This document shows positions 10,829 through 38,390 of a stretch of 41,717 nucleotides of DNA, in pieces. Below the pieces are notes generated by a model that was not told the origin of the DNA, ran no database searches, and saw only the letters and a list, made by a program, of their open reading frames with translations. Within the stretch, counting starts at the first letter, position 1. Each line of letters starts with the position of its first letter. The stretch comes from Candidatus Daviesbacteria bacterium RIFCSPLOWO2_01_FULL_37_10 (GTDB lineage Bacteria > Patescibacteriota > Microgenomatia > Daviesbacterales > UBA10151): contig MFDK01000004.1 in NCBI GenBank assembly GCA_001776865.1, positions 1 to 41,717 of the forward strand, in the 5' to 3' direction. The translations under genes were made by a program, and so were the position numbers.

Positions 10829-10841
10829 ATTTTAAAAGAAA

Positions 10842-10866: not shown

Positions 10867-10879
10867 GAGTTAGATTTTA

Positions 10880-11034: not shown

Positions 11035-13179
11035 TTACCTTTCAACTCTGCCTGTAAATCCGGAGGTTTCTACTATTTTAGCAGTAATATTACTTGGCAC
11101 TGGTTCATAGTGATCTGCTTCCATGTATGAAGTTGCCCTACCTTGAGACATACTCCTTATATTTGTAACATATCCATGCATTTCTGCTAAAGGAACTAAA
11201 GCTATAACCACCTTGGAATTTCCACGGGATTCGGAAGACAGAATTTGGGCTCTTTTTGCGCTCAAATCCCCAATAATATCCCCTAAAAATTCCTCCGGAG
11301 TAGTAACCTCCACCTTCATTATCGGTTCAAGTAAAATCATGTCCGCACGAGCTGCCGCATCGGAAAGTCCGAGTGACCCGGCTATTTTAAAGGCCATCTC
11401 AGAGGAGTCAACATCATGAAATGATCCATCATAAACTGTAACTTTTATATCCGTAACCGGGTATCCTGCTAAAATTCCAGTATCTTCTTTCTCTATTACA
11501 CCTTTCTCAATTGGTGCAATGAATTCTCTTGGAATAGCACCTCCAACAATTTCTGAAACAAATTCCCTTCCTTGCCCGCGTGGTAATGGCTCAATCTTGA
11601 GTAAACAGTGTCCGTATTGACCGCGACCTCCGGTTTGCCTGATATATTTTCCCTCACCACGAGCTTCCTTTGTAATAGTCTCTTTATATGCAACTTGCGG
11701 CTGGCCAACATTGGCCTCAACCTTAAACTCCCTTTTCATCCGGTCAACCAAAACTTCCAGCTGCAGCTCACCCATTCCGGCTATTATTGTTTGACCGGTT
11801 TCGTGATCAGATTTTACTCTAAAGGTTGGATCTTCCTCAGATAAACGACCAAGAGCTAAACCCAGCTTTTCCTGATCAGACTTTGTTTTAGGTTCAATTG
11901 CAAGGGATATAACCGGTTCCGGAAAAGAAATTGACTCCAAAACTACCGGATTTCCCTCATCACAAAGAGTGTTTCCGGTTATAGTATCTTTAAGTCCAAC
12001 TGCTGCTACAATTTCACCGGCATATGCCTCATCAATTTCTTCTCTATCGTTAGCATGCATAAGAAGAAGTCTACCAACCCGTTCCTTAATTTGTTTATTA
12101 ACGTTATAAACATACGTCCCGGATTTCAAAGTTCCAGCATAAACTCTAATATAGGTTAGCTTTCCAACGTGTGGATCAACTTGAATTTTGAAAGCAAGCG
12201 CGGCCATCGGAGCTTCTTTATCCCCATTGTTAATAACAATCTCTTCTTCAGGATTACTTGGATTTTTCCCGGTAATTGAAGTAATATCCTGCGGCGAAGG
12301 TAAATATTCAACAACACTATCGAGCATGGGCTGAACACCTTTGTTACGAAGTGAAGATCCGGCAAGTACTGGTACGATTTTATTGTCAATAACTGCCCGA
12401 CGAAGAGCTTTTTTCAGATCCTCAACTGAGATTTCCTCTCCACCCAGGTATTTTTCCATTAGCACGTCATCGGTTCCAGAAATCTCCTCCACCAGCTTAT
12501 CTCTATACTTATCTACATCTGAGGTCATATCTGCTGGAATATCTGCTTCTTTGAAATCAGCTCCAGTTTCTGATCCCTCCCATATAAATGCTTTCTTAGT
12601 TAATAAATCTATAACACCGCGAAAATCATTTTCTTTCCCAATTGGCAAGTTGTATGCAACTGCATTTGCGCCGAGTCTATCTCTAGCAGACTGTATTGTC
12701 CCATGAAAATCTGCGCCAACTACATCCATTTTGTTTGCAAAAGCAATAAGTGGAACTTTATATTTATTAGCCTGTCTCCATACTGTTTCTGTTTGAGATT
12801 GAACCCCTGATGCAGAGTCTAGAACAATTACACCTCCGTCCAAAACACGCAGAGATCTCTCGACTTCAGCTGTAAAATCAACGTGTCCCGGGGTATCAAT
12901 TAAGTTAATCCTAATTTCAGCGTCTTTAAAAGAACCACTCTTTGGAGTCCAGAAGGTAGTAATAGCAGCAGAAACAATTGTAATTCCACGCTCTTTTTCC
13001 TGCTCCATCCAGTCAGTTGTAGTTGTTCCCTCATCAATATCGCCAATTTTATAGGTTCGACCGGTGTAAAATAAAATTCGCTCGGTTGTTGTGGTTTTAC
13101 CTGCATCAATGTGCGCAATAATACCTATATTTCTAATTCTATCCAGAGGAAAATCCCGTTTAGTTTTTTGTATAGCCAT
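11035..13179 (-). CDS. fusA: Elongation factor G
   Basis: [41 protein letters not shown]... is 714 aa and canonical EF-G. Confidence 0.97.
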
Positions 13180-24180: not shown

Positions 24181-24402
24181 TTAAGCTACCGGGGTTTTTG
24201 GTAAAGACTTTCTATTCATAATAGCTTCTTTCTTAAGTCTTTTTTCTTCCATATCTGATTCCACAGCTTCCTGGCAAATTTTATCCGGACAAACAGTTTC
24301 TGTACGTGTAAGTACAGTATTACCTATTTGCTGTGTCCACTCTTTTGATACAATCCTGTCTTTCCCACATCTAATACAAGGGTTTGAATATACGGTTTGC
24401 AT
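24181..24402 (-). CDS. Small zinc-ribbon-like protein (73 aa)
   Basis: CIRCGKDR...CPDKIC cysteine pairs. No other recognisable feature. Confidence 0.45.
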   Translation of the reverse strand: MQTVYSNPCIRCGKDRIVSKEWTQQIGNTVLTRTETVCPDKICQEAVESDMEEKRLKKEAIMNRKSLPKTPVA

Positions 24403-24490
24403 AAAAACAGGTTTTTAAGATAAATCAAAAAGGCAGAAGAAGTATCTATACCTAAAACATATTATAACAGAGTCAGTTTAGTTTAGCAAA

Positions 24491-24522
24491 TTACGGATTA
24501 TTGGCTACATTTTTTGTTCTTC
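24491..24522 (-). other. Decayed duplicate of the mltG 3' end, including the stop position
   Basis: ttacggattattggctacattttttgttcttc compared with mltG 25023-25058 tcaaggattatttgctacattttccaggtgttcttc. By hand alignment 28/32 relic positions are identical with one 4-nt gap. Confidence 0.75.
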
Positions 24523-24529
24523 TGAAATG

Positions 24530-24538
24530 TGATATAAT
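24530..24538 (+). promoter_or_regulatory. Extended -10 promoter (TGaTATAAT) for a leaderless hicB mRNA
   Basis: tgatataat, then 6 nt (ctcact), then the ATG at 24545. Confidence 0.5.
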
Positions 24539-24544
24539 CTCACT

Positions 24545-24817
24545 ATGAAAAAGATTACTCAGAAAGTTTTGAAATATACTGTAATTTTTGAACCAGCAAA
24601 AGAAGGTGGATATGTTGTGTCTGTACCTGCATTACCGGGTTGCGCTACTCAAGGAGAAACTTTTGAAGAAGCAATCTATATGATTAAGGACGCTATAAAA
24701 CTTTATCTTTCCGTATTAAAAGAAGATGGCGAAGATATTCCTCAGGAAAAGGACGATATATTAATAACTAAAATCTCCATACCTGTACCTGCCATTTCTA
24801 TCAATGGCATCCTTTAA
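24545..24817 (+). CDS. hicB: HicB-family antitoxin
   Basis: KYTVIFEPAKEGGYVVSVPALPGCATQGETFEEAIYMIKDAIKLYL is the HicB/UPF0150 fold signature. It overlaps hicA by 14 nt. Confidence 0.85.
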   Translation: MKKITQKVLKYTVIFEPAKEGGYVVSVPALPGCATQGETFEEAIYMIKDAIKLYLSVLKEDGEDIPQEKDDILITKISIPVPAISINGIL

Positions 24818-25019
24818 ACCGAAAGAAATTATTTCTATTCTTCAGAAACTTGGATTTATTAGAAAAAGACAATCAGGCAGTCATGTCATAATGTATCATC
24901 CAGAGACAAAGATAAGTCTTCCAGTACCGCTTCATACCAAAGATATTAAGAGAGGACTAGTTTTAAGTATCATTAAACAAGCTAAATCAAACGAGGAAGA
25001 GTTTATTAAACTGAAATAA
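24804..25019 (+). CDS. hicA: HicA-family mRNA interferase toxin
   Basis: ...KEIISILQKLGFIRKRQSGSHVIMYHPE... is the HicA/YcfA signature. Confidence 0.85.
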   Translation: MASFKPKEIISILQKLGFIRKRQSGSHVIMYHPETKISLPVPLHTKDIKRGLVLSIIKQAKSNEEEFIKLK

Positions 25020-25022
25020 GTT

Positions 25023-25979
25023 TCAAGGATTATTTGCTACATTTTCCAGGTGTTCTTCCAGGGTTTTTCCGTAGTGTGAATTTCCTTTACTATCATGATA
25101 GTAATATAAATACTGAGTATTCGGGTTTGCATTTGCAACAGCTTCCAGCGATGATAGGGATGGATTACAAATTGGAGCTGGCGGAAGACCTGGATTCTTA
25201 TACGTATTATAAGGAGATTTTATCTCTTTATCGTCTTTTGTAATATGTCTTTTCCACCAGGATTTTTCAGACTGCTGATATCCAAGGGCATATTGAACAG
25301 TTGCATCAACATCCAGTTTCATTCCAATATTTAACCTGTTAAGTAAAATCCCGGCAACTTCTGTTCTTACTTTATCTGACCTTCCTTCTCTTTCCACAAG
25401 CGAGGCTAAAATTACTCCTTCTTTCTCAGTTAACCCTTTAGCTTTTATTTTTTTCTTTAAATCATCCGCGTATTTCCTGTTAAAATTATCTTGAAGAGTC
25501 TCTGTTATATACTCAACTTCTGCGTCTTTTGGGAAAAGATACGTATCCGGAAACATATAACCTTCTTTTGATAGTTTAAGAAATTGTCCATTGTCAATTT
25601 TTAAGTTCCCGTTTAACTTTTCTGCCATTTCTTCTACTCTCCAACCTTCAATAAAAGTTACCCAAACATCATCTGTTCCGGAAGTTAAAACATTTGCAAT
25701 TTCAGAAATGCTCATGGAAGGGGAAAGCTTAAACGACCCTGCTTGAATCCTGGAAGCCAGATTATTTTGTCTGGCATAAATTTTAAAAGTAAGTTCTGAG
25801 CGGATTAAATTATCATCTTTTAATCTTTTAGCAATGCTAGATATCCCTTCACTTTTGGGAATTACTATTACCCTGGCATTTTCATCAGAGCTTACCGGAG
25901 AAGTTTGTACCTTCCACAAACCACCGGTAACTATAAACATCAGAAGAAAAATTAATATTATGGCTAAGAATTTTTTCAT
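25023..25979 (-). CDS. mltG: Endolytic murein transglycosylase MltG (YceG-like)
   Basis: N-terminal TM helix, then ...ILASLVEREG...NTYKNPGLPPAPICNPSLSSLEAV...YYYHDSKGNSHYGKTLEEH... Confidence 0.9.
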   Translation of the reverse strand: MKKFLAIILIFLLMFIVTGGLWKVQTSPVSSDENARVIVIPKSEGISSIAKRLKDDNLIRSELTFKIYARQNNLASRIQAGSFKLSPSMSISEIANVLTSGTDDVWVTFIEGWRVEEMAEKLNGNLKIDNGQFLKLSKEGYMFPDTYLFPKDAEVEYITETLQDNFNRKYADDLKKKIKAKGLTEKEGVILASLVEREGRSDKVRTEVAGILLNRLNIGMKLDVDATVQYALGYQQSEKSWWKRHITKDDKEIKSPYNTYKNPGLPPAPICNPSLSSLEAVANANPNTQYLYYYHDSKGNSHYGKTLEEHLENVANNP

Positions 25980-26729: not shown

Positions 26730-27371
26730 TCAAATCATTTTCCCTATAACTACTAGCCTTTTTGTATTTAATCCTGGAGGAACACAGGTCATAAGGGAAA
26801 TATATCTTCCTACCCCATCCGGAGGAAGGGTAACAGAGGTCTCTTTCGGATCCACAACTCTGATCCCTAAAACTTTATATGTAAAATCTCCCCCTGCAGA
26901 AACTTTAATAATATCTCCTTTTTCAAGCCTTTGTAAATTTGCAAAAATTGCTCTATAATTTTTACTACCTCTGTAAATAATCGGTATTGCCGAATGACCT
27001 GAAATAAAAATATTACCTTTCTCCCCAGGAAGCGCGGTTCCCGGCAGATGAACCAATCCTTCACTTAAATTATTACTCTCAACTAAAACTTTTGCCTCTT
27101 CAATATCTAAGCGTGGAACTGAAATTAAAAATTCCGTATACGGAATAAACTCTCTTTTTGAGAAAGATATTAAAGCAGGAAAGTTATCTCTGGTGTTTTG
27201 AATGGAAACTCCCAAAACTCTATTGCTTTCTGAAATTGGACTCACAAGTATATTTTTTGCTTCTATATTGGCAAGTTCCCACAGCTTAAAATTTATAACC
27301 GGTATGGCTATCTGTACTAGAACGAAAAACCCTGCTAATAAAAAAATTGCCGGAATAATTTTTGCAATCAC
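26730..27371 (-). CDS. Sortase-family transpeptidase
   Basis: (GTG start) N-terminal TM helix, ...NIFISGHSAIP... (His), ...YISLMTCVPPG... (TLxTC-like Cys) and a downstream Arg. Confidence 0.8.
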   Translation of the reverse strand: MIAKIIPAIFLLAGFFVLVQIAIPVINFKLWELANIEAKNILVSPISESNRVLGVSIQNTRDNFPALISFSKREFIPYTEFLISVPRLDIEEAKVLVESNNLSEGLVHLPGTALPGEKGNIFISGHSAIPIIYRGSKNYRAIFANLQRLEKGDIIKVSAGGDFTYKVLGIRVVDPKETSVTLPPDGVGRYISLMTCVPPGLNTKRLVVIGKMI

Positions 27372-29653
27372 TTTAAGCTTACCTCAATTTTAATATTACG
27401 TTCTAAAATTGGCAATCTCGCAAGTTGCGCTGGAATAGGCGGTGTGAGTTTTATTTCTGACCCTAAAACATTTTCGTATGATTTTAAAATATCTGCCGCA
27501 GCTTTTGGAGTTTTTCCTGCCAACTTTTTCTTAATTTCGCTCTCATTTATTTTTGGCATCAGTTTTGCTTTGAAACGTGCTAAAAATATAAGCCTTCCAT
27601 CTTTTTCTACTTTAGATACATCAGCTTGTGTTTCTGTATCAGTAAGCCTTAGTTCAAACCCTTCCGGTACGTTTGTCTCAACAAGTTTTGAAACTATGCG
27701 TTTAAGATCATCATCTAAATATACTGTACCTTTATAATTAATAGTTAAATTTAAGTTGAACTCTCCCGCCTGATCGTTAATATTTTTACTAAATGATTTT
27801 TTTGTGATTTCCTCACTTAGTGCTTCTTCCAGAACTTTTTTACCCTCAAGTTTGGCCTGAAGTTTTTCCTGAGCCTGTTTTCTTAAAGCTGCAGCCAATG
27901 ATGCAAGTAGTTTCTTCTGGTCGGAATCTGATACAACAGTAACCTCTTTTGATGTTCCTCCCGAAAAATTACCCTCGGATTTTGCTGAAAAATCAGAAGA
28001 TGGTACTCCGGAAATAGTAAGTTGAGTCCCGGAGGGAATGTTTCCGTCTGCTCCAATCGATACGGAAACAGCATCTACAGTTGCCTTTCCGAAAGAAATA
28101 CCATCTTCAGTTGCAGATTGTGAAGCTATTGTAGCGGATGAGTCCAGAGTAAATTTAAGATTATCAGATCCCACAAGGATAGTCCCTTTGGAAAAGGTTT
28201 TAGAAGAATTTGTCTTATTTGTAATAATCACCGATCCTTTTGCATTTTCCCCAACCTGTTTTTTACCTGTTGCACTTCCCTTTTCGCTTCCGCTAATTTG
28301 AGTTTCAACTATTTGACCGGGTATTTTTTTACCTTCCTCATCAACTTCTTTTACACTAGGATCTGCTGTAACTTGAGTATCTTTTTCAACAACTCTCGGC
28401 TCTACAAATACCGTAACTTTTGCCTGAGGAAGGAAAATATATGATAAGACAAGAAGGATTAAAATTACAACAGGAATTATTAGCTTTAGATTGAAAAATC
28501 TACTACCTGATCCTTCTAACTTCTCCCTTGTTACTGAAGGTGTCGCTAATGAGTTATCCTGAACAGGAAATCCCAAGTTATGTTGTGTTTTTTCCATCTC
28601 TCCATCTTCTTCCTGACCGAAATCTTCATCCAGTCCATCAGTAGTTTGGACAAATTCATCATCAGGATTAACGTCTTTTTCCATGACCCTTAAATCTTCA
28701 GTTCCATCGTCTTCTTTTATTAAACTCTCATCCTTTTCATCTTCAGCAGAAACTTTTTCCATCACATCTCCCTGAACAAAACCTGTATCCTCAACCGGAA
28801 TTTGTTTTTCAGGTGGTTCAGGAATTTTTACTTCTTCTTCCTTTGGCATAGCAGAAACTAAAGGTGAGTTCTTTACAAGCTGTTCTACAGGCTGGTACTT
28901 TATATCCGGCACCAGTTCAACTCCTCCGGCAAGCGCAACAGCTTTAATTTCCAAACCCCCTTCCAGGATATCAATTTTAGGGAGATGTAGAAACGAAAGC
29001 CGATTCATCCAGGGGAATGACAAAAGTTCATTTTTTTGTTTATCAAGGCTCTCTGCGTTTAGGCTGAAAAGAAGCATCCTTGAAGGAAGAACCTCAACCT
29101 CGGTAAATTGCAAAAGAAGCTTTTCTATATCCTCACCCAAACTACCGCTTCTTTTTATTATCTTTGTTCCATCAATTTTACCTCCTCTTGAAACCGTAAC
29201 TAAAACATGCCCTTCTCCAACTCCTGTAAGTATCGCCGTAGTTGGTGCACTTTCTTTTTTCTCAAGAAAATGAAAAATAGCATGTGAGGTTGAAACAAAA
29301 GCCATTGGTTTAAGCTCAAGGCTTTTTACAACATTCCTTAAAAGCTGCAAATATGAATCTTTTAAATTGTCATCAACCAGCCAGGAATCAGGAACTCCAA
29401 AGAGTATTTTTGTAGGCTCAATTTGAATTTCCCCTAAAGCCTGATCTAAAAGCCTGTCGGCAACTGTAACAATTTCCTCCTCGGACGAATATTTTGAAGA
29501 AACTATATTTAAAACTTTTAACTTATCTTTTTCTATTGTCCAGAGGCAAACCCTTAAAGTTTCCGGTCCAATATTAAGAGCAAAAAAAGTCTCAGTTTGT
29601 TCCTCTGGTTTACCGAAAGGCAGCATTGATGTAACTTTATCCAAAAAACTCAT
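27368..29653 (-). CDS. Large membrane protein: N-terminal FtsA/PilM-like (actin-fold) region, acidic linker, one TM helix, ~350-aa extracytoplasmic domain
   Basis: From the ATG at 29651-29653: MSFLDKV... The N-terminal ~260 aa (FFALNIGPETLRV...LKPMAFVSTSHAIFHFL...AILTGVGEGHVLVTV) weakly resembles the FtsA/PilM pattern. The TM helix is LKLIIPVVILILLVLSYIFL. The stop overlaps the sortase start. Confidence 0.6.
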   Translation of the reverse strand: MSFLDKVTSMLPFGKPEEQTETFFALNIGPETLRVCLWTIEKDKLKVLNIVSSKYSSEEEIVTVADRLLDQALGEIQIEPTKILFGVPDSWLVDDNLKDSYLQLLRNVVKSLELKPMAFVSTSHAIFHFLEKKESAPTTAILTGVGEGHVLVTVSRGGKIDGTKIIKRSGSLGEDIEKLLLQFTEVEVLPSRMLLFSLNAESLDKQKNELLSFPWMNRLSFLHLPKIDILEGGLEIKAVALAGGVELVPDIKYQPVEQLVKNSPLVSAMPKEEEVKIPEPPEKQIPVEDTGFVQGDVMEKVSAEDEKDESLIKEDDGTEDLRVMEKDVNPDDEFVQTTDGLDEDFGQEEDGEMEKTQHNLGFPVQDNSLATPSVTREKLEGSGSRFFNLKLIIPVVILILLVLSYIFLPQAKVTVFVEPRVVEKDTQVTADPSVKEVDEEGKKIPGQIVETQISGSEKGSATGKKQVGENAKGSVIITNKTNSSKTFSKGTILVGSDNLKFTLDSSATIASQSATEDGISFGKATVDAVSVSIGADGNIPSGTQLTISGVPSSDFSAKSEGNFSGGTSKEVTVVSDSDQKKLLASLAAALRKQAQEKLQAKLEGKKVLEEALSEEITKKSFSKNINDQAGEFNLNLTINYKGTVYLDDDLKRIVSKLVETNVPEGFELRLTDTETQADVSKVEKDGRLIFLARFKAKLMPKINESEIKKKLAGKTPKAAADILKSYENVLGSEIKLTPPIPAQLARLPILERNIKIEVSLK

Positions 29654-29713
29654 GCGGTTTTGCCCCAAAAGAAGGAGGCATTAATAGAATATTAACACAT
29701 TCAAATATCTTCC

Positions 29714-30228: not shown

Positions 30229-32061
30229 TCAAACAAGCTCCGCATAAATTCTTCTGACCCCTGAAGAAACTGCTTCTTCCTTGGTAATCTTTATACCACC
30301 AATCACATTTGTATGCTCAACATGTGGTCCGCCACAAAATTCGGCTGAGTAGTAACCACTGCGCTCACGTTGATCCTTTGCATTCACATCATAAATATGA
30401 TTTGACCCTATTACATAAATACTTACTTCTTCATCGTATTTTCCACCGAAGAGCCCAATGGCATTCATCTTCTGTGCCTCTTTCACACTCATAAATTTTC
30501 TTTCCACTACCAAATCTTCTTCTATTTTTTCATTAACCAGATCCTCAACTTTTTTAATTTCCTCCTCAGTCATTTTTCTATCATACGAAAAATCAAATCT
30601 TAACCGTTCGGTATTAATATTCGATCCTTTCTGAAAAACTTCCGGACCTAAAACATCTCTTAGAGCCTGGTGGAGGAGGTGAGTAACAGTATGGTATTTA
30701 ATCTCTGTTTCAGAATGTCCAGCCAAACCTCCCTTAAACATTCCTGCAGATGCAGTCCTTGAAAGTTCTTGATGTTTTTCAAACTCTTTCTTAAATTGCT
30801 CTTTATCAATATCTTGTCCTTTTTGCCTAAACAATTCCTCAGTCACTTCATATGGAAATCCAAATGTTTGATATAAATCAAAAGCAATTTTGCCATCTAT
30901 TTCGGAAATTTTCTCAATTTCTTTTAATCCTTTATCCAAAGTCTTCTGAAATTTTTCCAGTTCTTCGGTTATTACTTTGTTCACCCTGGGTAAACCTTCT
31001 TCCCAGTCAATTTCAAAAATCTCATTATACTGCGTTCTAATGATTCGAATCATTGAAACAAATGAGCTCACATCTAACCTTCCACTTAAATTGCGCATTT
31101 TTATTGCAGCTCTCCTAAGCAGTCTTCGCAAAACATAACCGTGCAGCTTATTAGAAGGAATCACACCATCCATAATCAAAAAAACAGAAGCTTTCAAATG
31201 GTCTGCAATAATTCTCATTAATTTTTTTTCTTCCTCGTCCTCATATGGATTACCAATAACTTGTACGATCGCATCAGTTATTGGCTTATGTAAATCAGTC
31301 TGGAATATATCCGGGTTATCATTAGTTGCTGCCGTTAATCTCTCCAATCCTCCTCCAAAATCAACGTTTTTTTGCGGAAGTTTTTCAAATTCGCTGTCGC
31401 CTGTTTTTTTGTATTCAATGAAAACTGAGTTTCCTATCTCCATAAAACGCCCGCAATTACAGTGAGGATGACATTTTTCTCCAAACCTTTCATCATGTTC
31501 TACTTGTGGAAACTCGAAGAATATCTCCGAATCAGTTCCTCCGATTTCTCCAACCGGCATTTGATCGGGAGATCCGGATCTACTCCACCAATTTTCTTTA
31601 ACTCCATAAAAATAGATCCTATCCTCAGGTACTCCAAAATCCTTCCATATACTAAAAGTCTCTTCATCTTTAGGGATTAAATTATCTCCCTCAAAAACTG
31701 TTACATGAAGTCTGTTAGGATCTAATCCTAATACATTAGTTAAAAATTCATAAACCCACCATATTTGTTCTTTCTTAAAGTAATCCCCCAAACTCCAGTT
31801 ACCCAACATCTCAAAAAATGTGGTGTGCCTGTTATCTCCAACCCCTTCTATGTCCTCAGCCCTAAAACAGGCTTGCGAATTAACCAATCTTATACCTTCA
31901 GGATGAGTTTTCCCCATTAAATACGGAATTAACTGCTGCATTCCGGATGAGGTAAAAAGTGTTGTCTGATCATCCGACACCAATCTGGCTGGATTTATTT
32001 GCACATGTTTTCTGCTTTTAAAAAAATCCAGGAATTTTTGTCTAATAACTCTTGAATCCAT
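30229..32061 (-). CDS. alaS: Alanine--tRNA ligase, short form lacking the C-Ala domain
   Basis: MDSRVIRQKFLDFFKSRKH...FTSSGMQQ...RHTTFFEMLGNWSLGDYFK is the class II AlaRS core. The editing-domain motifs HTVTHLLHQAL and CGGPHV are present. At 610 aa it ends about 30 aa after the CxxxH motif. Confidence 0.95.
   Translation of the reverse strand: MDSRVIRQKFLDFFKSRKHVQINPARLVSDDQTTLFTSSGMQQLIPYLMGKTHPEGIRLVNSQACFRAEDIEGVGDNRHTTFFEMLGNWSLGDYFKKEQIWWVYEFLTNVLGLDPNRLHVTVFEGDNLIPKDEETFSIWKDFGVPEDRIYFYGVKENWWSRSGSPDQMPVGEIGGTDSEIFFEFPQVEHDERFGEKCHPHCNCGRFMEIGNSVFIEYKKTGDSEFEKLPQKNVDFGGGLERLTAATNDNPDIFQTDLHKPITDAIVQVIGNPYEDEEEKKLMRIIADHLKASVFLIMDGVIPSNKLHGYVLRRLLRRAAIKMRNLSGRLDVSSFVSMIRIIRTQYNEIFEIDWEEGLPRVNKVITEELEKFQKTLDKGLKEIEKISEIDGKIAFDLYQTFGFPYEVTEELFRQKGQDIDKEQFKKEFEKHQELSRTASAGMFKGGLAGHSETEIKYHTVTHLLHQALRDVLGPEVFQKGSNINTERLRFDFSYDRKMTEEEIKKVEDLVNEKIEEDLVVERKFMSVKEAQKMNAIGLFGGKYDEEVSIYVIGSNHIYDVNAKDQRERSGYYSAEFCGGPHVEHTNVIGGIKITKEEAVSSGVRRIYAELV
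31035..31054. repeat. 20-nt motif ttctaatgattcgaatcatt, copy 1, inside the alaS coding sequence
   Basis: Exact 20-mer shared with 34049-34068 and 35549-35568. The core aatgattcgaatcatt is a perfect 16-nt palindrome. Here it encodes SMIRIIRT. Confidence 0.85.
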
Positions 32062-33415: not shown

Positions 33416-33697
33416 TTAAATTACTTTCATCTCGCTGAGATGCTCTCTAATCAATAAATTGGCAGCGTTTGATGTATCAATCCCTTTCTTTCTGGCCATC
33501 TTTTTAACCGCTTTCACTATTTCCGAATCAAGCGTTATAATCTCCTTATCTTCAAAAACCGATACCAGATTTTTGGAAAATTTCATATCTGTCACAGGTT
33601 CCCAAAAATCCGGGAAGTCTTCGGTTGAGTGAGTATCCCAAAATTCTGCCTCCTCTTGAATACTTTTAAATTTAGGTACAGTTCTAGTTTTTTTCAT
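33416..33697 (-). CDS. brnA: BrnA-type antitoxin
   Basis: From the ATG at 33695-33697: MKKTRTVPKFKSIQEEAEFWDTHSTEDF... plus a C-terminal RHH-like region. It overlaps the brnT stop by 14 nt. An upstream ATG at 33730 is also possible. Confidence 0.75.
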   Translation of the reverse strand: MKKTRTVPKFKSIQEEAEFWDTHSTEDFPDFWEPVTDMKFSKNLVSVFEDKEIITLDSEIVKAVKKMARKKGIDTSNAANLLIREHLSEMKVI

Positions 33698-33953
33698 TTT
33701 TAAATCTCCTTTTTTCCTTAAAATCAGCATCTCTTGCTGTCATTGGATAGAAATAACCACCCAATCTTGGTGATAAGATTATAGTTAAATACCTACCACT
33801 AACTGATTGCCCTATTAACTTGTAACTACCACTCCTACCTTTAGTGAATAAATTTTTGCTATTACAAGCCTCCTCTACTTCACTCTGCTCAACATTATGT
33901 CTTGCAGTATGGGCAATATTCCACTCGTCCCAGACCAGTTTCTTAATTACCAT
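33684..33953 (-). CDS. brnT: BrnT-type toxin (DUF497)
   Basis: ...LVWDEWNIAHTARHNVEQSEVEEA...YPMTARDADFKEKRRF is the BrnT/DUF497 pattern. Confidence 0.8.
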   Translation of the reverse strand: MVIKKLVWDEWNIAHTARHNVEQSEVEEACNSKNLFTKGRSGSYKLIGQSVSGRYLTIILSPRLGGYFYPMTARDADFKEKRRFKNEKN

Positions 33954-33970: not shown

Positions 33971-34048
33971 CGGACAAATTTTTTACCATCACACTATATT
34001 TATATGCGCCAATATAATGTACGATCGTATATCTTATTGGTTAAGATA

Positions 34049-34068
34049 TTCTAATGATTCGAATCATT
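34049..34068. repeat. 20-nt motif ttctaatgattcgaatcatt, copy 2
   Basis: Exact copy, about 80 nt upstream of the brnT -10. GTCAT hairpins follow. Confidence 0.85.
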
Positions 34069-34080
34069 GAAGTCATAACT

Positions 34081-34168: not shown

Positions 34169-34902
34169 CTAAATTTCCATTTGGGCAGATAGTTTTGGTA
34201 GATGAGAATAGTAAAACCAGCCTGTTTCAATTTGGGTCAGTACCAGTCTTACCTTTTCATAATCATTAAACTCTAATTCTCTAGAGGGGAAATCTCTTTT
34301 CATCACATCTAAATTAATCATATAACTAATACTACCAAGTCTTATATAATCTTCATCAAAAGGAGAACTCTGGTCATAACCATGATTTATCAATACAGCC
34401 TTACCTTGCTTTGTAAAGAAATATGTATATTGATACTCACACATAAATCCATTTCATCAACCCACATAATATCATCTGGATCTAATATTTCGGCATTAGC
34501 AGGAACTAGATCTCCCCCATAATCTTCAGGTCTGAGTCCTAAACTATAAACCGGATAATCAAAGCCTTCTGGTATTTTAAATGACCAGTTCTCTAACATG
34601 GATTCTTCCTGAAAAACCGTAATAAATGCCAAATGCGAAGGCAGATCTTTTTTGCTACATAAAAAGAGCATCGCTGTATTTAAACTCAAATCAGGATGTT
34701 CTAGTTTTTCCTTCTCGACTATTTTCTTAATCCTGTCAGCAAATAGTTTATTTTCTGCTTTAAAAATTTCTTCAGTTTCTCTCTCAGACATGGATAAGAT
34801 TATAAACCAAGGGTATGTTTTTATCAATTCATTCTCAGCTCCGCCTCCCCTTTGAGCCAAATATTCCTCTGCATTTTTAACCAGGAAATTTCCTGATTGC
34901 AT
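34169..34902 (-). pseudogene. Frameshifted ORF (two overlapping frames) whose 5' end is the ftsK relic
   Basis: ORFs 34390..34902 and 34169..34444 overlap in different frames. Removing one TG from the tgtgtg run (plus-strand cacaca, 34438-34443) fuses ...VDEMDL to CEYQYTYFF... The true start may be M38 (34791, MSERETEE...). Confidence 0.4.
34839..34889 (-). other. Decayed duplicate of the ftsK 3'-terminal coding sequence
   Basis: ctccgcctcccctttgagccaaatattcctctgcatttttaaccaggaaat compared with ftsK 36308-36358. By hand count 44/51 positions are identical with no gaps. It encodes LVKNAEEYLAQRGGG; ftsK has LVKNVEEYLAQRGGG. Confidence 0.85.
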
Positions 34903-34916
34903 ATATCGAACTGGTC

Positions 34917-34925
34917 TGCTATAAA
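34917..34925 (+). promoter_or_regulatory. Extended -10 promoter (TGcTATAAA) for the two-gene unit
   Basis: tgctataaa, then 7 nt, then the ATG at 34933. Confidence 0.4.
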
Positions 34926-34932
34926 TACACTT

Positions 34933-35121
34933 ATGAAAACAATTAACCTTTCAAGGCTTTTGAAAAACTTCTCTTCAGGATGGGTGGCTATTACTTCTGA
35001 CTATAAAAAAGTGGTTGCGTCAGGCAAAACCCTAAAAGAAGTTTCCAGTAAAGTCGGGGACGAAGATGTTGTTTTAATTTCTGCCTCAAAAAATTATAGA
35101 GGATATATAACTGCCGGATAA
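34933..35121 (+). CDS. Small protein (62 aa), DUF5678-like
   Basis: From the ATG at 34933: MKTINLSRLLKNFSSGWVAITSDYKKVVASGKTLKEVSSKVGDEDVVLISASKNYRGYI. From memory the pattern (GxWVAI..., vvasG.tl.ev) resembles DUF5678-type proteins. This needs an HMM search. Confidence 0.5.
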   Translation: MKTINLSRLLKNFSSGWVAITSDYKKVVASGKTLKEVSSKVGDEDVVLISASKNYRGYITAG

Positions 35122-35122
35122 G

Positions 35123-35527
35123 ATGAATTTCCCATATGCCACCCTCCCTGGTGTGCCAAAAGATACTAGAAGACCATTAGCACTAATTAAATTTATTCAC
35201 AAAGATAAATCAACTCGCCCGATTCTTTGTTTAATTGCTTCTGGTGCAGACTACTCTTATTTAACAACAGAGATTGCTGATTTATTGAATATTAATTTAA
35301 GTAAAATTACTCCACAGAAATCATTTGCAATTAACGGTTCGCAATTCTTATGTTACCCGTCAGAAATTGAAATCGAGATAGGTGGTCATCGATTAACTAT
35401 TCCAGTTCACTTTACTAAATCATTAACTTCGGCTTTCCCCTGCATAATAGGTCAGGAAAATTTCTTTAGCAAAACCAGGATTATTTTTGAAAGATACAAA
35501 TGGAATTTGGATATCAAATTAGTTTGA
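35123..35527 (+). CDS. Retropepsin-like (clan AA) domain protein with Ala in place of the catalytic Asp
   Basis: ...ILCLIASGADYSYLTTEIADLLNI... aligns with the D[ST]GA motif, read here as ASGA. A later ...PCIIGQENFF... aligns with the ILG.dfL motif. The gene starts 1 nt after the upstream stop. Confidence 0.55.
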   Translation: MNFPYATLPGVPKDTRRPLALIKFIHKDKSTRPILCLIASGADYSYLTTEIADLLNINLSKITPQKSFAINGSQFLCYPSEIEIEIGGHRLTIPVHFTKSLTSAFPCIIGQENFFSKTRIIFERYKWNLDIKLV

Positions 35528-35548
35528 AAATATATTTCATGTAATTTG

Positions 35549-35568
35549 TTCTAATGATTCGAATCATT
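35549..35568. repeat. 20-nt motif ttctaatgattcgaatcatt, copy 3
   Basis: Exact copy, 21 nt after the stop of the retropepsin-like gene. GTCAT hairpins follow. Confidence 0.85.
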
Positions 35569-35582
35569 AAAGCAACACATTT

Positions 35583-35695
35583 GTCATTCTGAAACGAACA
35601 AAAAGAAGCGATAAGCAGAACTTGCTTTTGCTACGCAAAAGTAGAATCTTTCTCCGTCATTGCGAGGAGCGAGTGAAGCGAGCGACGTGGCAATC
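35583..35695 (+). repeat. Two GTCAT hairpin repeats with nested inserts
   Basis: 35583-35648 is gtcattct[...ttttgctacgcaaaa...]agaatc. 35656-35695 is gtcattgcgaggagcgagtgaagcgagcgacgtggcaatc. Confidence 0.8.
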
Positions 35696-35736
35696 TATCT
35701 GACATTCCCACATTCCAAGTGGAAAACTATATAGAA

Positions 35737-36264
35737 TCACATTGCAACAAGTTGTGGAGAATGTAAACCTAAAACATGCTCTATAGAAGGAGGCTGAATG
35801 AAATGAATTTGAATCCTCTTAAAAATTTCAGGATGATCTGGAACAGGATAGTATCGCGGTGCTTCGTTAAGTTTCTTTTGCCATCTTTCAATTACTACTA
35901 TATCATCTTGATACCCCAATAAAACTTCTTCTCTATCCCTAACAACGCATAACACATTTGGATAAGTAGAATTAGTAGTGGGCATTAAACAAAGAGTTAA
36001 TATTAAAGGGTTATCTTCAATACCTCTTAATGCTTGAATATCTAACATCCGCCTATGAATAGTAGCGCTGGGTAAATTACCTTCCTCTATAAACTCTCTT
36101 CTTTGTTCTATTAGAGCATTCTTCCTATATAATAAAGGGCGCACATGAACATCCCATAAATCGAAATATTGTGAGGGGGAAATATTTCCTTTATCATCTA
36201 CATCATACTCAGAAAACGGAGTAATATCCTGACCTAATCGAACATCAATACGCTCTTCTACCAT
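35737..36264 (-). CDS. Hypothetical 175-aa protein (island cargo)
   Basis: Clean ORF with an ATG at 36262-36264. I recognise no family. Confidence 0.5.
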   Translation of the reverse strand: MVEERIDVRLGQDITPFSEYDVDDKGNISPSQYFDLWDVHVRPLLYRKNALIEQRREFIEEGNLPSATIHRRMLDIQALRGIEDNPLILTLCLMPTTNSTYPNVLCVVRDREEVLLGYQDDIVVIERWQKKLNEAPRYYPVPDHPEIFKRIQIHFIQPPSIEHVLGLHSPQLVAM

Positions 36265-36296
36265 TAAATAAACTATAAACTAGATGGTTTTATTTG

Positions 36297-38390
36297 TCAA
36301 CTTTCCCCTCCGCCGCCTCTTTGAGCCAAATATTCTTCAACATTTTTGACCAGGACATCCCGCGGTTTTGCACCGTCTCCTGTTCCAACAACTCCTGCCT
36401 CTTCCAGCTCATCCAGGATACGGGCTGCACGCGCATAGCCCACGCGAAGCCGTCTCTGCAGAAGTGAGGCTGAAGCCCGGTCATATTGACAAACAGTTCT
36501 TACCGCCTCCTCAAATAAATCATCTTCTTCACCTATACCACCTCCTTTACCAATTCTTCCAAGAGGCATTTCTGTTACCTCAGTTGTATACTGCGGCTCA
36601 ACTCCTGTTGATTTAAGATACTTTATTAAGTTATTTATTTCGGGGTCTTGAACGAAAACTCCCTGTATTCTAACAGGTTTGCTTGCATCAGGAGGTAAAA
36701 ACAACATATCTCCGCGACCAAGAAGTTTCTCAGCCCCCGGCGTATCCAAAATGACCCGGGAGTCAATCATGGATGATACATTAAATGCAATACGGCAGGG
36801 GATATTTGCCTTAATTAAACCTGTTATAACATCAACGGATGGCCGCTGCGTTGCCACAACAAGATGAATTCCTGTTGCTCTTGCCAGTTGGGCAATACGG
36901 GTGATTGCATCTTCCACTTCAACTGGAGCAAACATCATTAAATCTGCAAGTTCATCAATTATAATTACAATGTAAGGAAGAGCCTGAAATCCTGACATTT
37001 CATTATACCCTGCAATATTTCTAACTCCAACGGACTGGAAAAGTTTATACCTGCGGTCCATTTCTGCCATTGCCCATTTTAAGGCTGAGAGGATTTTTTC
37101 AGGCTCTGTTATAACAGGAGTTAAAAGATGGGGGATGCCGTTATAGTTTGTCAGTTCCACCCTTTTTGGGTCTATTAGAATAAGTTTAAGCTCGTCCGGA
37201 GAATTTCTGAAAAGCAGAGAGCTAATCATAGAATTTATTAAAATTGATTTTCCGGATCCGGTTGTTCCAGCAACCAGGCAATGGGGCATCCTGTCTATAT
37301 CAACAATCATAGGTTTTGAAGCTGTATCCCTGCCTAAAGATACTGCAAGTTTAGATTTGTGCTTACTCATCTCATCAGATGCCAGGATATTTTTAAGCCC
37401 TACTATCTCCAGTGAATGGTTTGGCACTTCAATCCCTACTAAAGATTTTCCGGGAATTGGCGCCTCAATTCTAACAGTTCCTGTTGGCGTAGCCAGGGAA
37501 AGAGCTATATCGTGCTGTAGGTTTGCAATTTTGGCAATTTTTGTCCCTGCTGATATTTCCAGCGCATATTGAGTAACAGCCGGACCACCGTTTACTTCAG
37601 CCACTCTTGCCTGAACCCCGAAAGAGTCCAGTGTTTTTTCAATAACGGAAGCATTTTTCTTTATATCTCCCCTGTTTGCAGGAGAACCAACTTTATCTGA
37701 TAGAAGAGAAAGCGGCGGATATTTCCAAACCCTTGCCTGCCCGGCAACATTTTGCACAAGTTCATCAGCCATAACTGTTTCTTTAGATTTCACAGGAGTT
37801 TTTTCAGAAGTCTGGTTCAATCCGGAAAGTTTGATAGGGATATGTTTTGCCTCAAAGGTTCTTTGTCTGGCAAATACAGGAATAAGTATTTTTTCCTTTA
37901 TAGCTTTTATTACCCACCCCAATATCCCAAAAATCTGCGAAAGCGAAGTATTAAACATTACAACAAGTCCCACTAAAAATACCCCTATTAACAAAAATGC
38001 ACTGCCTAAAGGAGTAATAAAAGATGCCAGCTGACTCCATAGAGAAAAACCAATCATGCCCGCATTTTCAGAAGAAATTCCTGCAGTAAGGCCTGTAATT
38101 GATAAAATTAAAAGTACAAGTCCTAAAAGTACATTTGTTTGAGCAAACCCCCACTTTACTTTTTGTAAGACAAGCCCGCAAAGCACAAATAAAACTGGAG
38201 AAAAAACATAAGTCCAGCCCAATGTTTTAAATAGAAAATTTTTCCAGAACCTTAAAATACTCGCATCCATTACCAATGATACTAAAGAAAGTCCTGCCAG
38301 CATAAAACTGATCAGGGATCCCACGGCAAAAATGGTTTTCTTTTTAAGTCTTAACTTTGGTGTTGAATAAATAGATCTTCGTCTAGACAT
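36297..38390 (-). CDS. ftsK: DNA translocase FtsK/SpoIIIE
   Basis: N-terminal TM helices, the motor domain with Walker A (VAGTTGSGKS), and a C-terminal winged-helix gamma-like domain (...LLQRRLRVGYARAARILDELEEAGVV...). Confidence 0.95.
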   Translation of the reverse strand: MSRRRSIYSTPKLRLKKKTIFAVGSLISFMLAGLSLVSLVMDASILRFWKNFLFKTLGWTYVFSPVLFVLCGLVLQKVKWGFAQTNVLLGLVLLILSITGLTAGISSENAGMIGFSLWSQLASFITPLGSAFLLIGVFLVGLVVMFNTSLSQIFGILGWVIKAIKEKILIPVFARQRTFEAKHIPIKLSGLNQTSEKTPVKSKETVMADELVQNVAGQARVWKYPPLSLLSDKVGSPANRGDIKKNASVIEKTLDSFGVQARVAEVNGGPAVTQYALEISAGTKIAKIANLQHDIALSLATPTGTVRIEAPIPGKSLVGIEVPNHSLEIVGLKNILASDEMSKHKSKLAVSLGRDTASKPMIVDIDRMPHCLVAGTTGSGKSILINSMISSLLFRNSPDELKLILIDPKRVELTNYNGIPHLLTPVITEPEKILSALKWAMAEMDRRYKLFQSVGVRNIAGYNEMSGFQALPYIVIIIDELADLMMFAPVEVEDAITRIAQLARATGIHLVVATQRPSVDVITGLIKANIPCRIAFNVSSMIDSRVILDTPGAEKLLGRGDMLFLPPDASKPVRIQGVFVQDPEINNLIKYLKSTGVEPQYTTEVTEMPLGRIGKGGGIGEEDDLFEEAVRTVCQYDRASASLLQRRLRVGYARAARILDELEEAGVVGTGDGAKPRDVLVKNVEEYLAQRGGGGES

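Follow-up and report, generated by a model that had tools for sequence, protein, structure and literature searches.

How does a pair of genes without any mobility gene come to lie against the stop codon of a housekeeping gene, flanked by a second copy of that gene's own end, with the gene itself left intact? This question is raised by the mltG locus of Candidatus Daviesbacteria bacterium RIFCSPLOWO2_01_FULL_37_10, which was analysed within a 41,717-nucleotide stretch of contig MFDK01000004.1 (hereafter, the window) and compared with the corresponding loci of its relatives.

The mltG end, the hicBA cassette and the relic

The gene order sortase-ruvX-mltG-variable gap-rpoB is kept across 80 relatives, and it is at the mltG side of this gap that the cassette is found. 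In the window, mltG (25023-25979, minus strand) encodes an intact 318-aa endolytic transglycosylase of the YceG family (Pfam PF02618, E 1.8e-80); the public gene call for MltG starts later than this 318-aa ORF. The last 11 codons of mltG together with its stop (25023-25058, minus strand; EEHLENVANNP followed by the TGA read from the sequence at 25023-25025) constitute the segment termed T, of which this is the gene-linked copy. A spacer of only 3 nt, likewise read from the sequence (25020-25022), separates the mltG stop from that of the convergent hicA (25017-25019, plus strand), and these coordinates agree with an earlier note on this DNA, in which the two stops were placed 3 nt apart on opposite strands. 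The same note held that nothing but an extended -10 promoter, hicB and hicA had been inserted, and the sequence, the ORFs and the Pfam matches all support this content. In fact, the cassette (24523-25022, plus strand) measures 500 bp and comprises the extended -10 motif TGaTATAAT (24530-24538), located 6 nt 5' of the hicB ATG, the gene for a short-form antitoxin of 90 aa, hicB (24545-24817; HicB_lk_antitox PF15919, E 9.5e-13, residues 11-68), and the gene for a toxin of 71 aa with a conserved G-S-H motif, hicA (24804-25019; HicA_toxin PF07927, E 1.1e-20), the two genes overlapping by 14 nt. On the other side of the cassette, alignment revealed a relic copy of T (24491-24522, minus strand), which is 32 nt long, carries a 4-nt deletion and ends in NVANNP and a TAA stop (24491-24493). 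Beginning 2 nt past this stop, the promoter scan placed a promoter composed of TTGCTA, 17 nt and TG-TATAAT (24461-24489, minus strand), with 10 of 12 consensus matches in addition to the TG. It precedes a gene from the ORF list for a 73-aa Cys-rich, zinc-ribbon-like protein, zn73 (24181-24402, minus strand), for which no Pfam match was obtained.

Both partners of the cassette resemble known toxin-antitoxin proteins. HicA aligns with PDB 1WHZ (E 4.9e-08), its G-S-H motif standing opposite the G-G-H of 1WHZ, and HicB matches the HicB structures 6U0I and 6HPB over residues 5-67, a match limited to the N-terminal ~60 residues of these references, which have 138-148 aa against the 90 aa of the HicB in the window. 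By Pfam and structure alignment, the toxin-binding domain alone was matched and the C-terminal DNA-binding domain (RHH/HTH, autoregulation) is absent, which is compatible with HicAB membership because many, not all, HicB proteins carry that domain. The two features that define this membership, a toxin with the HicA domain, known for its dsRBD-like fold and conserved catalytic His, and an adjacent antitoxin with the HicB N-terminal domain in the same operon, are both present, and the hicA and hicB ORFs are intact and identical in at least nine contigs from different samples. The pair is predicted to be a self-contained type II toxin-antitoxin (addiction) cassette, with HicA as a predicted RNase toxin. 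The putative hicB promoter is an extended -10 element without a -35, its function being read from the motif: the consensus scan reported no -35/-10 pair for it, and TGnTATAAT is likewise found just 5' of hicB in L039, L081, L082 and L096. The hicBA mRNA is probably leaderless. With the HicAB systems of E. coli, Yersinia, Burkholderia and Streptococcus, the pair in the window shares the HicA and HicB N-terminal domains and the overlapping bicistronic operon, whereas it differs from them in its 90-aa short-form HicB devoid of the DNA-binding domain, in the antitoxin-first order of the operon and in its promoter, a bare extended -10 abutting the start codon.

The relic aligns to 25023-25058 with one 4-nt gap, in a block of 18/19 matching nucleotides followed by one of 8/9. 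Its local score is 35, whereas 5000 dinucleotide shuffles gave 29 at most (z about 8), and the mltG end is the best match of the relic's intergenic region across the whole window on both strands. Thus, the 32-nt relic of the mltG end that had been proposed at 24491-24522 was recovered with statistical support, the lack of which had been named as a reason to abandon it. Read in the mltG frame, the relic yields NVANNP and a stop, as the gene does, and over the last seven codons the sole differences between gene and relic are GCA/GCC, CCT/CCG and TGA/TAA, so that a stop at the homologous position, also claimed previously, is retained as TAA.

A further proposal was that the heptamer ctgaaat, seen at both junctions of the cassette, might act as a junction signal. 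Its copies are indeed present at 24522-24528 and 25011-25017, but the role of a signal was rejected, since the window contains 18 copies of the heptamer where 12 are expected, some shared 7-mer turns up in about 6% of cases when two 30-nt stretches are drawn at random 490 nt apart, and the orthologous cassette of L039 has ctcaaat and ccaaaat in its place. Judged by these counts, its presence at both junctions is chance.

Empty sites and exchange of the cassette among Daviesbacteria

In the relatives L170 and L173, whose MltG proteins are 81% and 71% identical to that of the window, hicBA is absent and a single mltG end runs directly into the promoter and the 73-aa gene located beyond the relic in the window; zn73 adjoins mltG in L172 as well. 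Positions 4935-4953 of L170 align to both T copies of the window. Additionally, a single mismatch in 32 aligned positions (31/32) separates the relic from the L170 mltG end, and the relic is continuous with DNA orthologous to the sequence past the mltG stop in L170. Because the single mltG end of L170 and L173 leads into the same promoter and the same 73-aa gene, the relic represents the displaced original mltG end. This comparison of loci shows it to be the terminus that the resident gene once had, still joined to its original downstream promoter and gene, and on the same grounds zn73 is the gene that originally followed mltG in this clade. The alignment of occupied and empty sites also shows hicBA to be a 500-bp insertion. 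Hence, the view of the earlier note that a cassette had been inserted next to a relic of the mltG end found its confirmation in L170 and L173; the part placing the insertion at the mltG stop did not hold, recombination inside the last 36 nt of mltG being the better description. For L039, the corresponding empty site is L075 (mltG/ribK).

An orthologous hicBA pair lies downstream of mltG, in the same orientation, in five genomes (the window, L039, L175, L176 and L177), and the junction between the hicB promoter and the relic is orthologous in all five. Beyond the relic, zn73 follows in the window and ribK in the four others; since the downstream DNA differs among them, the mltG end is the sole flank that they have in common on that side. 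The stretch 25019-24484 of the window is 79% identical to 5189-5730 of L039. Among the five genomes, DNA identity amounts to 76-93% for hicB and 78-92% for hicA, against 62-72% for mltG and 61-66% for ruvX in the same genomes. Therefore, horizontal transfer of hicBA took place later than the host splits. These comparisons show that Daviesbacteria exchange the cassette and that it arrives repeatedly at one site, where it is joined to the relic in the same way.

The relic is longest in the window and L039 (32-36 nt), shorter in L175 (about 29 nt) and shortest in L176 and L177 (about 14 nt). Among 80 species-representative loci, a significant relic was detected only in L039, which carries an orthologous hicBA; the idea that mltG-end relics are a general trait of the variable mltG-rpoB gap was rejected on this count. 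It was also verified that no relic is present in the relatives examined that lack hicBA, an occurrence that had been regarded in advance as contradicting the insertion. The locus has received other DNA as well. In L050, an unrelated hicAB lies directly past the mltG stop with no relic, and in L175-L177 and L039 other DNA is found between mltG and hicA, which has left no T relic; therefore, insertions at the mltG end follow more than one rule. The two genes are separated in L039 by a 290-nt non-coding stretch, whose tail is similar to that of an unrelated L175 cargo cassette, a tail that bears a palindrome. A recombinase-like N-terminal motif in one frame of this stretch brought up an integrase remnant as a candidate, which was rejected given that no Pfam or NCBIfam match was obtained at E up to 10. 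Clade-specific palindromes follow other cargo genes at the mltG locus in relatives. A duplication of the promoter region around the 184-aa insert of L172 was likewise rejected (score 14, z -1.7), as was a phage as carrier of hicBA, because no relatives of HicB were found in the viral contig collection.

Homologous cassettes are also found at the ends of other genes. Direct repeats of 28-125 nt, derived from different targets, flank 9 of 30 homologous hicBA loci; the targets of the more distant cassettes include clp, rplX, a tRNA and an oxidoreductase gene, and the repeats of L102 and L103 derive from a tRNA 3' end. Across many independent contexts, the repeats sit 15-40 nt from the hicB start, and the neighbours of hicBA homologs are housekeeping genes. 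Within the window itself, end duplications of fusA and ftsK occur too, and a 453-aa 'tuf' ORF and the ORF at 34390-34902 are annotation artefacts arising from relics.

Affinities of the two T copies and a proposed route of entry

Three sites, synonymous or within the stop, distinguish the gene-linked copy of T from both the relic and the L170 end, and over its last 21 nt this copy agrees fully (21/21) with the mltG end of L175, the genome whose hicB is closest to that of the window (93%). Upstream of these 21 nt, the mltG of the window is 87-91% like L170 and 64-73% like L175. This switch of affinity inside T is the mosaic that a crossover in the shared core AAAATGTAGC would leave, and the last 21 nt that mltG has today may have been imported with the cassette. 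A donor tract reaching into mltG beyond T was rejected, since the identity to L170 is steady along the gene and the switch is confined to the last 21 nt. The variants GCA, CCT and TGA are widespread polymorphisms in Daviesbacteria (two of the three occur in L173), and the last 21 nt of the relic are matched exactly by L177 and L029; because the marker sites are commonly polymorphic, the mosaic argument leans on few characters.

The way in which the copies have diverged is also informative. In 4/4 cases with aligned stops, the similarity between gene and relic drops to background directly past the stop, and in L093 the coding part of the copies differs at 3/90 sites and the post-stop part is diverged. 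Similarity that ends at the stop therefore fits orthologous ends of different genomes, unlike a mechanical target duplication. Over eight pairs, 30 of the differences between gene copy and relic are synonymous and 27 non-synonymous, whereas 31-42% synonymous changes would be expected if the copies arose by duplication in place and then decayed neutrally (P = 0.0005-0.07 depending on assumptions), which makes the synonymous excess moderately significant. In the codon-position test, the data were clearly separated from the expectation that both copies are neutral and weakly from that of duplication in place.

We lean, with modest confidence, towards the reading that hicBA arrived by horizontal transfer and entered the mltG 3' end through recombination involving a cassette-borne copy of the target end, and the pattern points to a recombinase-free route by which selfish gene pairs target gene ends. 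The mobile unit would carry its own copy of the terminal segment T of its target and would enter through a single reciprocal exchange within T, performed by host homologous recombination or by a recombinase supplied in trans. In one variant, a circular T-hicA-hicB molecule would integrate in the Campbell manner; in another, a linear T-cassette-T fragment would enter by double crossover, the relic then corresponding to a short homology arm. On the mltG side, the product would consist of the resident mltG with the imported last ~21 nt, followed by the cassette, and on the far side the cassette-borne 5' part of T would be joined to the resident 3' part of T and to the resident downstream DNA. As a result, mltG would stay intact and the promoter of its neighbour would remain undisturbed, while the inserted toxin-antitoxin pair would counter deletion between the two repeats. 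The length of T speaks against an exchange of the RecA type, as its 36 nt, with an identical core of about 10 nt, are short for RecA.

The structure of the locus, exactly target-cassette-target over a single-copy empty site, would also result from duplication in place, in which some enzyme or repair process would make staggered breaks 36 nt apart at the mltG end, ligation of the cassette and fill-in would duplicate the resident target, and the copies, identical at first, would later diverge. In each genome, the repeats are similar to the gene resident there, and the locus has the features set out for restriction-modification insertions, namely a repeat above 30 bp, no mobility gene and an insert below 20 kb (PMC2853133). 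We nevertheless regard this origin as rather unlikely, considering that related cassettes have repeats of unequal length (28-125 nt), that similarity ends at the stop codon, that the same cassette/relic junction recurs beside different downstream DNA, that an excess of synonymous differences separates the copies and that not one pair of copies is identical. Moreover, of the two copies it is the relic that lies nearer to the outgroup L170, although a relic evolving neutrally would be expected to diverge faster than the gene copy, which is under constraint.

Improbable as well, in our judgement, is that a larger integrase-bearing element once occupied the mltG 3' end and was streamlined to the addictive hicBA, leaving an integrase-less, cis-mobilizable remnant. 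No integrase or transposase was detected by Pfam in the variable gap of the window or in the 500-bp cassette, none in 10 large ORFs from the mltG gaps of relatives and, next to hicBA homologs (57 ORFs), none among the 25 most frequent of 71 Pfam families. An origin of the repeats in gene 3' ends, and in a tRNA 3' end in L102 and L103, is a classic feature of att sites, the 290-nt non-coding stretch retained in L039 could be a trace of such an element, and the current model for solitary chromosomal toxin-antitoxin 'islets' assumes arrival on larger mobile elements and subsequent streamlining (PMC13617665). However, the L039 spacer has no protein-family match and shares its tail with unrelated L175 cargo, the genes intervening between mltG and hicA vary by lineage, which marks them as later arrivals and not as a shared backbone, and the borders of the cassette are tight in many independent contexts. 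A single ancient insertion in Daviesbacteria, with vertical descent, precise loss in most lineages and gene conversion maintaining the relic, would be in line with the orthologous junctions of the five genomes and the graded decay of their relics. This history is very improbable, given that hicBA identity of up to 93% lies far above the 62-72% of the flanking genes, that close relatives have clean empty sites and that the relic is absent from 79 of 80 species representatives; in addition, the relic is almost identical to the functional end of L170 and is therefore young.

Relation to known systems and significance

Insertion with long target duplication is known from restriction-modification gene complexes (Nobusato et al. 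2000, Gene 259:99; Furuta et al. 2010, PMC2853133). The hicBA insertion is comparable in being a small selfish addiction unit with no mobility gene, whose direct repeats, tens to hundreds of bp long and often including the stop codon of a gene, correspond to the single copy of the empty site. It differs in that its repeat extends no further than the stop codon, that related cassettes strike one site repeatedly and that the copies resemble ends from different genomes, not a fresh duplication. Because the predicted activity of HicA is that of an RNase, DNA breakage by a restriction enzyme, the proposed common cause, cannot apply. Held against the definition of Furuta et al. 2010, the locus presents a repeat of 32/36 nt, empty sites in L170 and L173, no mobile-element gene and an insert of 500 bp, but its cargo is hicBA instead of a restriction-modification system. 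Since the class was defined on restriction-modification systems, hicBA extends the phenomenon and falls outside the set first described.

A surrogate 3' end of the target gene is brought along by integrative islands such as phage 21/e14 in icd and ICESt1/3 in fda. Integrase-less, att-flanked elements mobilizable in cis are in use as an element class of their own, the CIMEs (PMC6323972, PMC7563491). Both kinds resemble the hicBA insertion in their target 3'-end repeats, in the gene being kept intact and in the displaced copy at the far border, and CIMEs additionally in having no recombinase inside. As in a CIME, attL/attR-like repeats from the target 3' end are present and the gene is restored; no cognate tyrosine or serine recombinase was found in the cassette, the scanned genes of the window, the gaps of relatives or the listed neighbour families. 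In contrast to CIMEs, hicBA is limited to two genes on 500 bp, the analysis turned up no integrase-bearing element cognate to it, and its flanks of 22 nt and 3 nt leave no room for arm-type recombinase sites. The toxin-antitoxin cassettes of Vibrio superintegrons are compact, mobile, promoter-containing operons that stabilise their neighbourhood (PMC2654758). The hicBA cassette is likewise a compact, mobile, promoter-bearing toxin-antitoxin operon, but its flanks are copies of the end of a housekeeping gene, and neither an attC-like palindrome at either border of the window's cassette nor an intI integrase was found. Transposons, IS elements and MITEs are marked by terminal inverted repeats and by a brief target-site duplication of constant length; in the window, no inverted repeat pairs the ends of the cassette, and the duplications of the cassette family, of 28-125 nt, are variable in length.

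The locus offers a clean natural series that runs from empty sites through a young insertion, whose displaced gene end is still nearly complete, to older decaying relics and sister cassettes at other gene ends, and it includes horizontal exchange between genomes whose flanking genes are only about 65% identical; among the genes and families scanned, no recombinase gene accompanies any part of this series. For annotation, relics matter because they give rise to pseudo-ORFs and to spurious N-terminal extensions. Should the cassette-borne target end guide homing, 'long target duplication' insertions would become explainable and testable, and one way would be seen in which tiny, streamlined CPR genomes gain accessory genes inside core operons while leaving these undamaged. 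A broader suggestion, which we put forward tentatively and hold to be possible but doubtful, is that Daviesbacteria, and probably other Patescibacteria, host a class of minimal recombinase-free selfish cassettes, each made up of a toxin-antitoxin pair and a bare promoter, that home via a short portable copy of the conserved 3' end of a housekeeping gene. Cassette DNA set free by one cell and imported by a relative of it would be guided to the same gene end, the gene-end copy being its sole 'mobility device' and acting as a portable homology arm or attachment site; homing would restore the gene with an imported surrogate end, and addiction would then guard against deletion. If true, such homing would also explain the duplicated fusA and ftsK ends of the window and would supply a mechanism for the 25-year-old phenomenon of insertion with long target duplication.

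The hicBA cassette and the repeated mltG terminus

In this Candidatus Daviesbacteria (Microgenomates/Patescibacteria) genome, the minus strand carries a sortase gene, ruvX and mltG (25023-25979; Pfam YceG, 1.8e-80), beyond which lie hicA (24804-25019, plus strand; HicA_toxin, 1.1e-20) and hicB (24545-24817, plus strand; HicB_lk_antitox, 9.5e-13), followed by zn73, a 73-aa Cys-rich ORF (24181-24402, minus strand), a NUDIX gene, two unknown ORFs and rpoB. The earlier note had placed only an extended -10 promoter, hicB and hicA between mltG and its relic, a layout confirmed from the sequence: hicB and hicA overlap by 14 nt, and 3 nt separate the hicA stop (25017-25019) from the mltG stop (25023-25025). 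An assembly artefact is excluded, since the exact MltG protein is also encoded on contig MFCK01000012.1 of GCA_001775285.1 and on 24 or more contigs from different samples and assemblers, each with the same local gene order, and since 721 bp around the cassette and relic are identical in eight contigs, a ninth ending inside the cassette. Adjoining the sortase gene, a position conserved in relatives, a 766-aa ORF (27368-29668) gave a weak Baseplate_J match below the cut-off (E 0.001).

The duplicated segment, T, corresponds to the last 36 nt of mltG. Its relic at 24491-24522 (minus strand; TTACGGATTATTGGCTACATTTTTTGTTCTTC) aligns to the gene-linked copy at 25023-25058 (minus strand; TCAAGGATTATTTGCTACATTTTCCAGGTGTTCTTC) with a single 4-nt gap and a local score of 35, above the maximum of 29 in 5000 dinucleotide shuffles; this is the top match of the 142-nt intergenic region, the next best among all 100-nt stretches of the window, on both strands, scoring 28. 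Translated in the mltG frame, gene and relic alike end in NVANNP-stop, and the last seven codons differ only by GCA/GCC, CCT/CCG and TGA/TAA. The relic beyond the 500-bp cassette and its retained stop, both noted previously, were thus borne out. The heptamer ctgaaat, once read as marking the junctions, does occur at both (24522-24528 and 25011-25017), but it was rejected as a signal: the window holds 18 copies against 12 expected, the orthologous cassette of the relative L039 lacks it, and about 6% of random 30-nt pairs 490 nt apart share a 7-mer. The heptamer excepted, the reading of an insertion flanked by an mltG-end relic is supported.

HicA retains the G-S-H motif and aligns with PDB 1WHZ. 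HicB is a 90-aa short form whose similarity to HicBs of solved structure is confined to their toxin-binding N-terminal domain; since the DNA-binding domain of those structures is absent from it, the usual HicB autoregulation is probably absent as well. The motif TGaTATAAT (24530-24538) ends 6 nt 5' of the hicB ATG without a -35 element, and a consensus scan detected no -35/-10 pair upstream of hicB. The promoter is therefore probably of the extended -10 type and, because it lies so close to the ATG, the mRNA is probably leaderless. The same bare layout recurs in cassette homologs.

Empty sites and related cassettes in other Daviesbacteria

Among 80 species-representative relatives, the order sortase-ruvX-mltG-[gap]-rpoB is conserved, with varied cargo (Fic, AbiEii, NUDIX, transporters, other hicAB pairs) in a gap of about 140 bp to over 4 kb. 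Comparison of mltG loci, the check proposed earlier, revealed insertion through empty sites in two closer relatives without hicBA, L170 (MltG 81% identical) and L173 (71%; mltG|zn73). In L170 the mltG end (...GAAGAACACCTTGAAAATGTAGCCAATAATCCATAA) is directly followed by ATTTGCTAAAATTAC...CTGTTATAATAT...AGGTATAGATACTT and the zn73 ATG, and the window carries the same downstream sequence directly after the relic TAA (TTTGCTAAACTAAAC...CTGTTATAATAT...AGGTATAGATACTT), a stretch containing the zn73 promoter (TTGCTA-17-TGTTATAAT). By BLASTN, L170 4055-4953 aligned to window 25925-25027 and L170 4935-5722 to window 24513-23674, 19 nt of L170 aligning to both copies. Moreover, the relic matches the functional mltG end of L170 at 31 of 32 aligned positions, GCC and TAA among them. 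Together, the empty sites, the shared downstream DNA and this match indicate that the insert is 24523-25022 (500 bp) and that the relic is the displaced original mltG terminus, still joined to its original downstream DNA.

An orthologous cassette is found in L039 (MltG 56-58% identical), with 79% DNA identity over window 25019-24484, relic included. The L039 relic (5683-5722; score 40, z 8.3), 21 nt upstream of the flavokinase gene ribK, is the only significant one among the 80 loci; hence none of the hicBA-less genomes there has the relic, whose presence would have counted against the earlier interpretation. L075 provides the matching empty site, mltG|ribK. A HicB protein search returned many homologs at 77-88% identity, and three contexts (L175, L176 and L177) were compared. 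All have the order mltG, an unrelated 223-274-aa ORF, hicA and hicB on the opposite strand, a relic remnant and ribK. The junction between hicB promoter and relic is orthologous in all five genomes (window ...ATCACATTTCA|GAAGAACA...; L175 ...ACATATTTTG|GAAGAACATAATG...), and relic preservation is graded, from 32-36 nt in the window and L039 through about 29 nt in L175 to about 14 nt in L176 and L177.

Pairwise DNA identity reaches 76-93% for hicB and 78-92% for hicA, compared with only 62-72% for mltG and 61-66% for ruvX. Protein selection cannot explain this, because mltG and ruvX are far more diverged at the DNA level in the same genomes; the common ancestor of the cassettes is thus younger than that of the genomes carrying them. 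The zn73 context of the window and the ribK contexts have only one flank in common on the relic side, the mltG end, so integration is directed at this segment. It is established that the hicBA cassette was recently inserted, is horizontally mobile and targets the conserved mltG terminus.

The ORFs between mltG and hicA (L175 3027-3701; L176 3056-3880; L177 2982-3653) have no Pfam domain, those of L176 and L177 being homologous to each other and that of L175 different. As these unrelated ORFs left no mltG-end relic, the mltG stop is a hot spot for insertions of different kinds. In L172 (MltG 79% identical), another insert between mltG and zn73 (830-1700) comprises a gene for a 184-aa membrane protein, a palindrome and hairpin repeats; promoter-like sequence on both sides was considered as a flanking duplication and dismissed for want of statistical support.

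Similar duplications and repeats at other sites

Significant direct repeats flank the cassette in 9 of 30 more distant hicBA loci (metagenomes, enough flank). The targets are the C-terminal end of a Clp ATPase (L081, L082; 48-65 nt, the relics still encoding complete alternative C-termini), the end of a ribosomal protein L24-like gene (L093; about 120 nt, with three synonymous differences in a 90-nt coding core), 33 nt upstream of recA (L092; a 33-nt repeat), an internal part of a membrane-protein gene (L096, L101; about 100 nt), the 3' end of a tRNA gene with a group I intron (L102, L103; about 28 nt) and the end of an oxidoreductase-like gene (L140; 123 nt). The distance between one repeat copy and the hicB start is usually 15-40 nt, and the neighbouring genes are housekeeping genes. 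The intron-bearing tRNA gene targeted in L102 (470-756; Rfam RF00028, 94.6 bits) was missed by ARAGORN, and the original terminator hairpin comes after its displaced 3' end.

Within the window, a systematic scan of gene ends detected a 3'-end relic beyond a small insert for exactly three genes, ftsK (z 17), fusA (z 15) and mltG (z 7.3), and no genuine 5'-end duplication. The last ~45 nt of fusA (EF-G, 11035-13179) recur at 10232-10276, just upstream of tuf, and an NYN-domain (PIN-like RNase) gene (10283-10828) lies between the copies (region 10232-11062); this relic keeps its TAA and gives the tuf ORF a false N-terminal extension, to an apparent 453 aa. The last ~62-75 nt of ftsK (36297-38390) recur at 34815-34889 (region 34815-36358), across a 1.4-kb insert with a DUF5678-like small ORF (34933-35122) and ORFs at 35123-35527 and 35737-36264. 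The ftsK relic has lost its stop and is now the N-terminus (MQSGNFLVKNAEEYLAQRGGG...) of ORF 34390-34902, either a gene fusion or a pseudo-ORF.

A perfect 16-nt palindrome, AATGATTCGAATCATT, occurs three times in the window (31039-31054, 34053-34068, 35553-35568), and a second family (CCAATA..GTACGATCG..TATTGG) nearby (31253-31284, 34009-34040); two of these copies lie within the alaS ORF. The former is clade-restricted: in 1.09 Mb of DNA examined, only the window, L170-L172 and L175 contain it, with 10 matches in total. At the mltG locus of relatives it directly follows inserted cargo genes (after the mltG stop in L171, in the L172 insert, before hicA in L175), with a degenerate copy in the L039 spacer; possible functions are those of a terminator, a repeat element or a recombination site. 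The region immediately upstream of a second toxin-antitoxin pair (33416-33953, minus strand; CopG_antitoxin 33416-33730, and a weak BrnT_toxin match below the Pfam cut-off, 33684-33953) contains the palindromes at 34009-34072. A dispersed family of two hairpin-like units, TTGTCATTCCGGACTTGATCCGGAATCT and AGATCCTGAAACGAGTTCAGGATGACGATA, is intergenic between core genes (4636-4708, 8869-8933, 40290-40319, 41678-41707), and units resembling them ('GTCATTGCGAGG...GGCAATC') are present at 35580-35700 as well as in L171 and L172.

Proposed recombination within the mltG terminus

The target-cassette-target structure could result from duplication of a long target in place. However, this leaves the stop-codon boundary, the variable repeat length and the shared cassette/relic junction unexplained, and is considered unlikely. 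In all four cases with aligned stops, similarity between the T copies drops to background directly past the stop codon; in L093 the coding part is 97% identical and the post-stop part diverged. Relative to the outgroup L170, the constrained gene-linked copy of the window carries four synonymous or stop differences, and the unconstrained relic one. In addition, L175, whose hicB is the closest, has exactly the same last 21 nt of mltG as the window, whereas over the 39 and 90 nt before them the window mltG resembles L170 at 87-91% and L175 at only 64-73%. Across eight pairs, 30 codon differences are synonymous and 27 non-synonymous, against 31-42% synonymous expected if the duplication arose in place and the relic evolved neutrally (P = 0.0005-0.07 under different assumptions). 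Although there are few informative characters, several of them common polymorphisms, this boundary, these affinities and the synonymous excess argue for gene ends from different genomes brought together by recombination and against a fresh resident duplication.

From these comparisons we infer a recombination mechanism at the mltG end. On balance, and with modest confidence, we favour a single reciprocal exchange inside T, around the core AAAATGTAGC that both copies share, in which the resident mltG end recombined with a copy of T borne by the cassette. It could proceed by Campbell-type integration of a circle or, equally, by double crossover of a T-cassette-T fragment with the relic as short arm. 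The mltG end downstream of the crossover would then be imported and the 3' part of the relic resident, and the 5' part, with its frameshifting 4-nt deletion, would travel with the cassette and never be translated. The exchange may be carried out by the host's own homologous recombination once DNA has been taken up, or by a trans-acting recombinase. Decay of an integrase-bearing island would fit the att-like repeats and agrees with the current streamlining model for toxin-antitoxin systems (PMC13617665), but it is doubtful: no recombinase was found in the cassette, the scanned window genes, 10 large ORFs in the gaps of relatives or the 25 Pfam families listed, of 71 (57 ORFs), near hicBA homologs; in other lineages, mltG and hicA are separated by unrelated DNA that arrived later; and the L039 spacer has no protein-family match. 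A single ancient insertion followed by vertical descent is contradicted by both the hicBA versus mltG/ruvX identities and the young relic, and is highly improbable.

The closest described phenomenon is the insertion with long target duplication of RM systems, which involves long variable direct repeats that span stop codons, no mobility genes and empty sites in relatives, and whose mechanism was tentatively tied to DNA breakage by the restriction enzyme (PMC2853133). Apart from the cargo, the hicBA/mltG case fits its operational criteria; as the toxin, HicA, is an RNase, the case speaks against DNA cleavage specific to the cargo as the mechanism. It is also similar to CIMEs, the integrase-less att-flanked derivatives of integrative elements, and to the toxin-antitoxin cassettes of integrons, but without the defining recombinase of either or the attC features of the latter. 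No report of this architecture for toxin-antitoxin cassettes or in Patescibacteria was found in the open-access literature, and the series at the mltG locus is unusually complete, which makes it useful for elucidating the mechanism.
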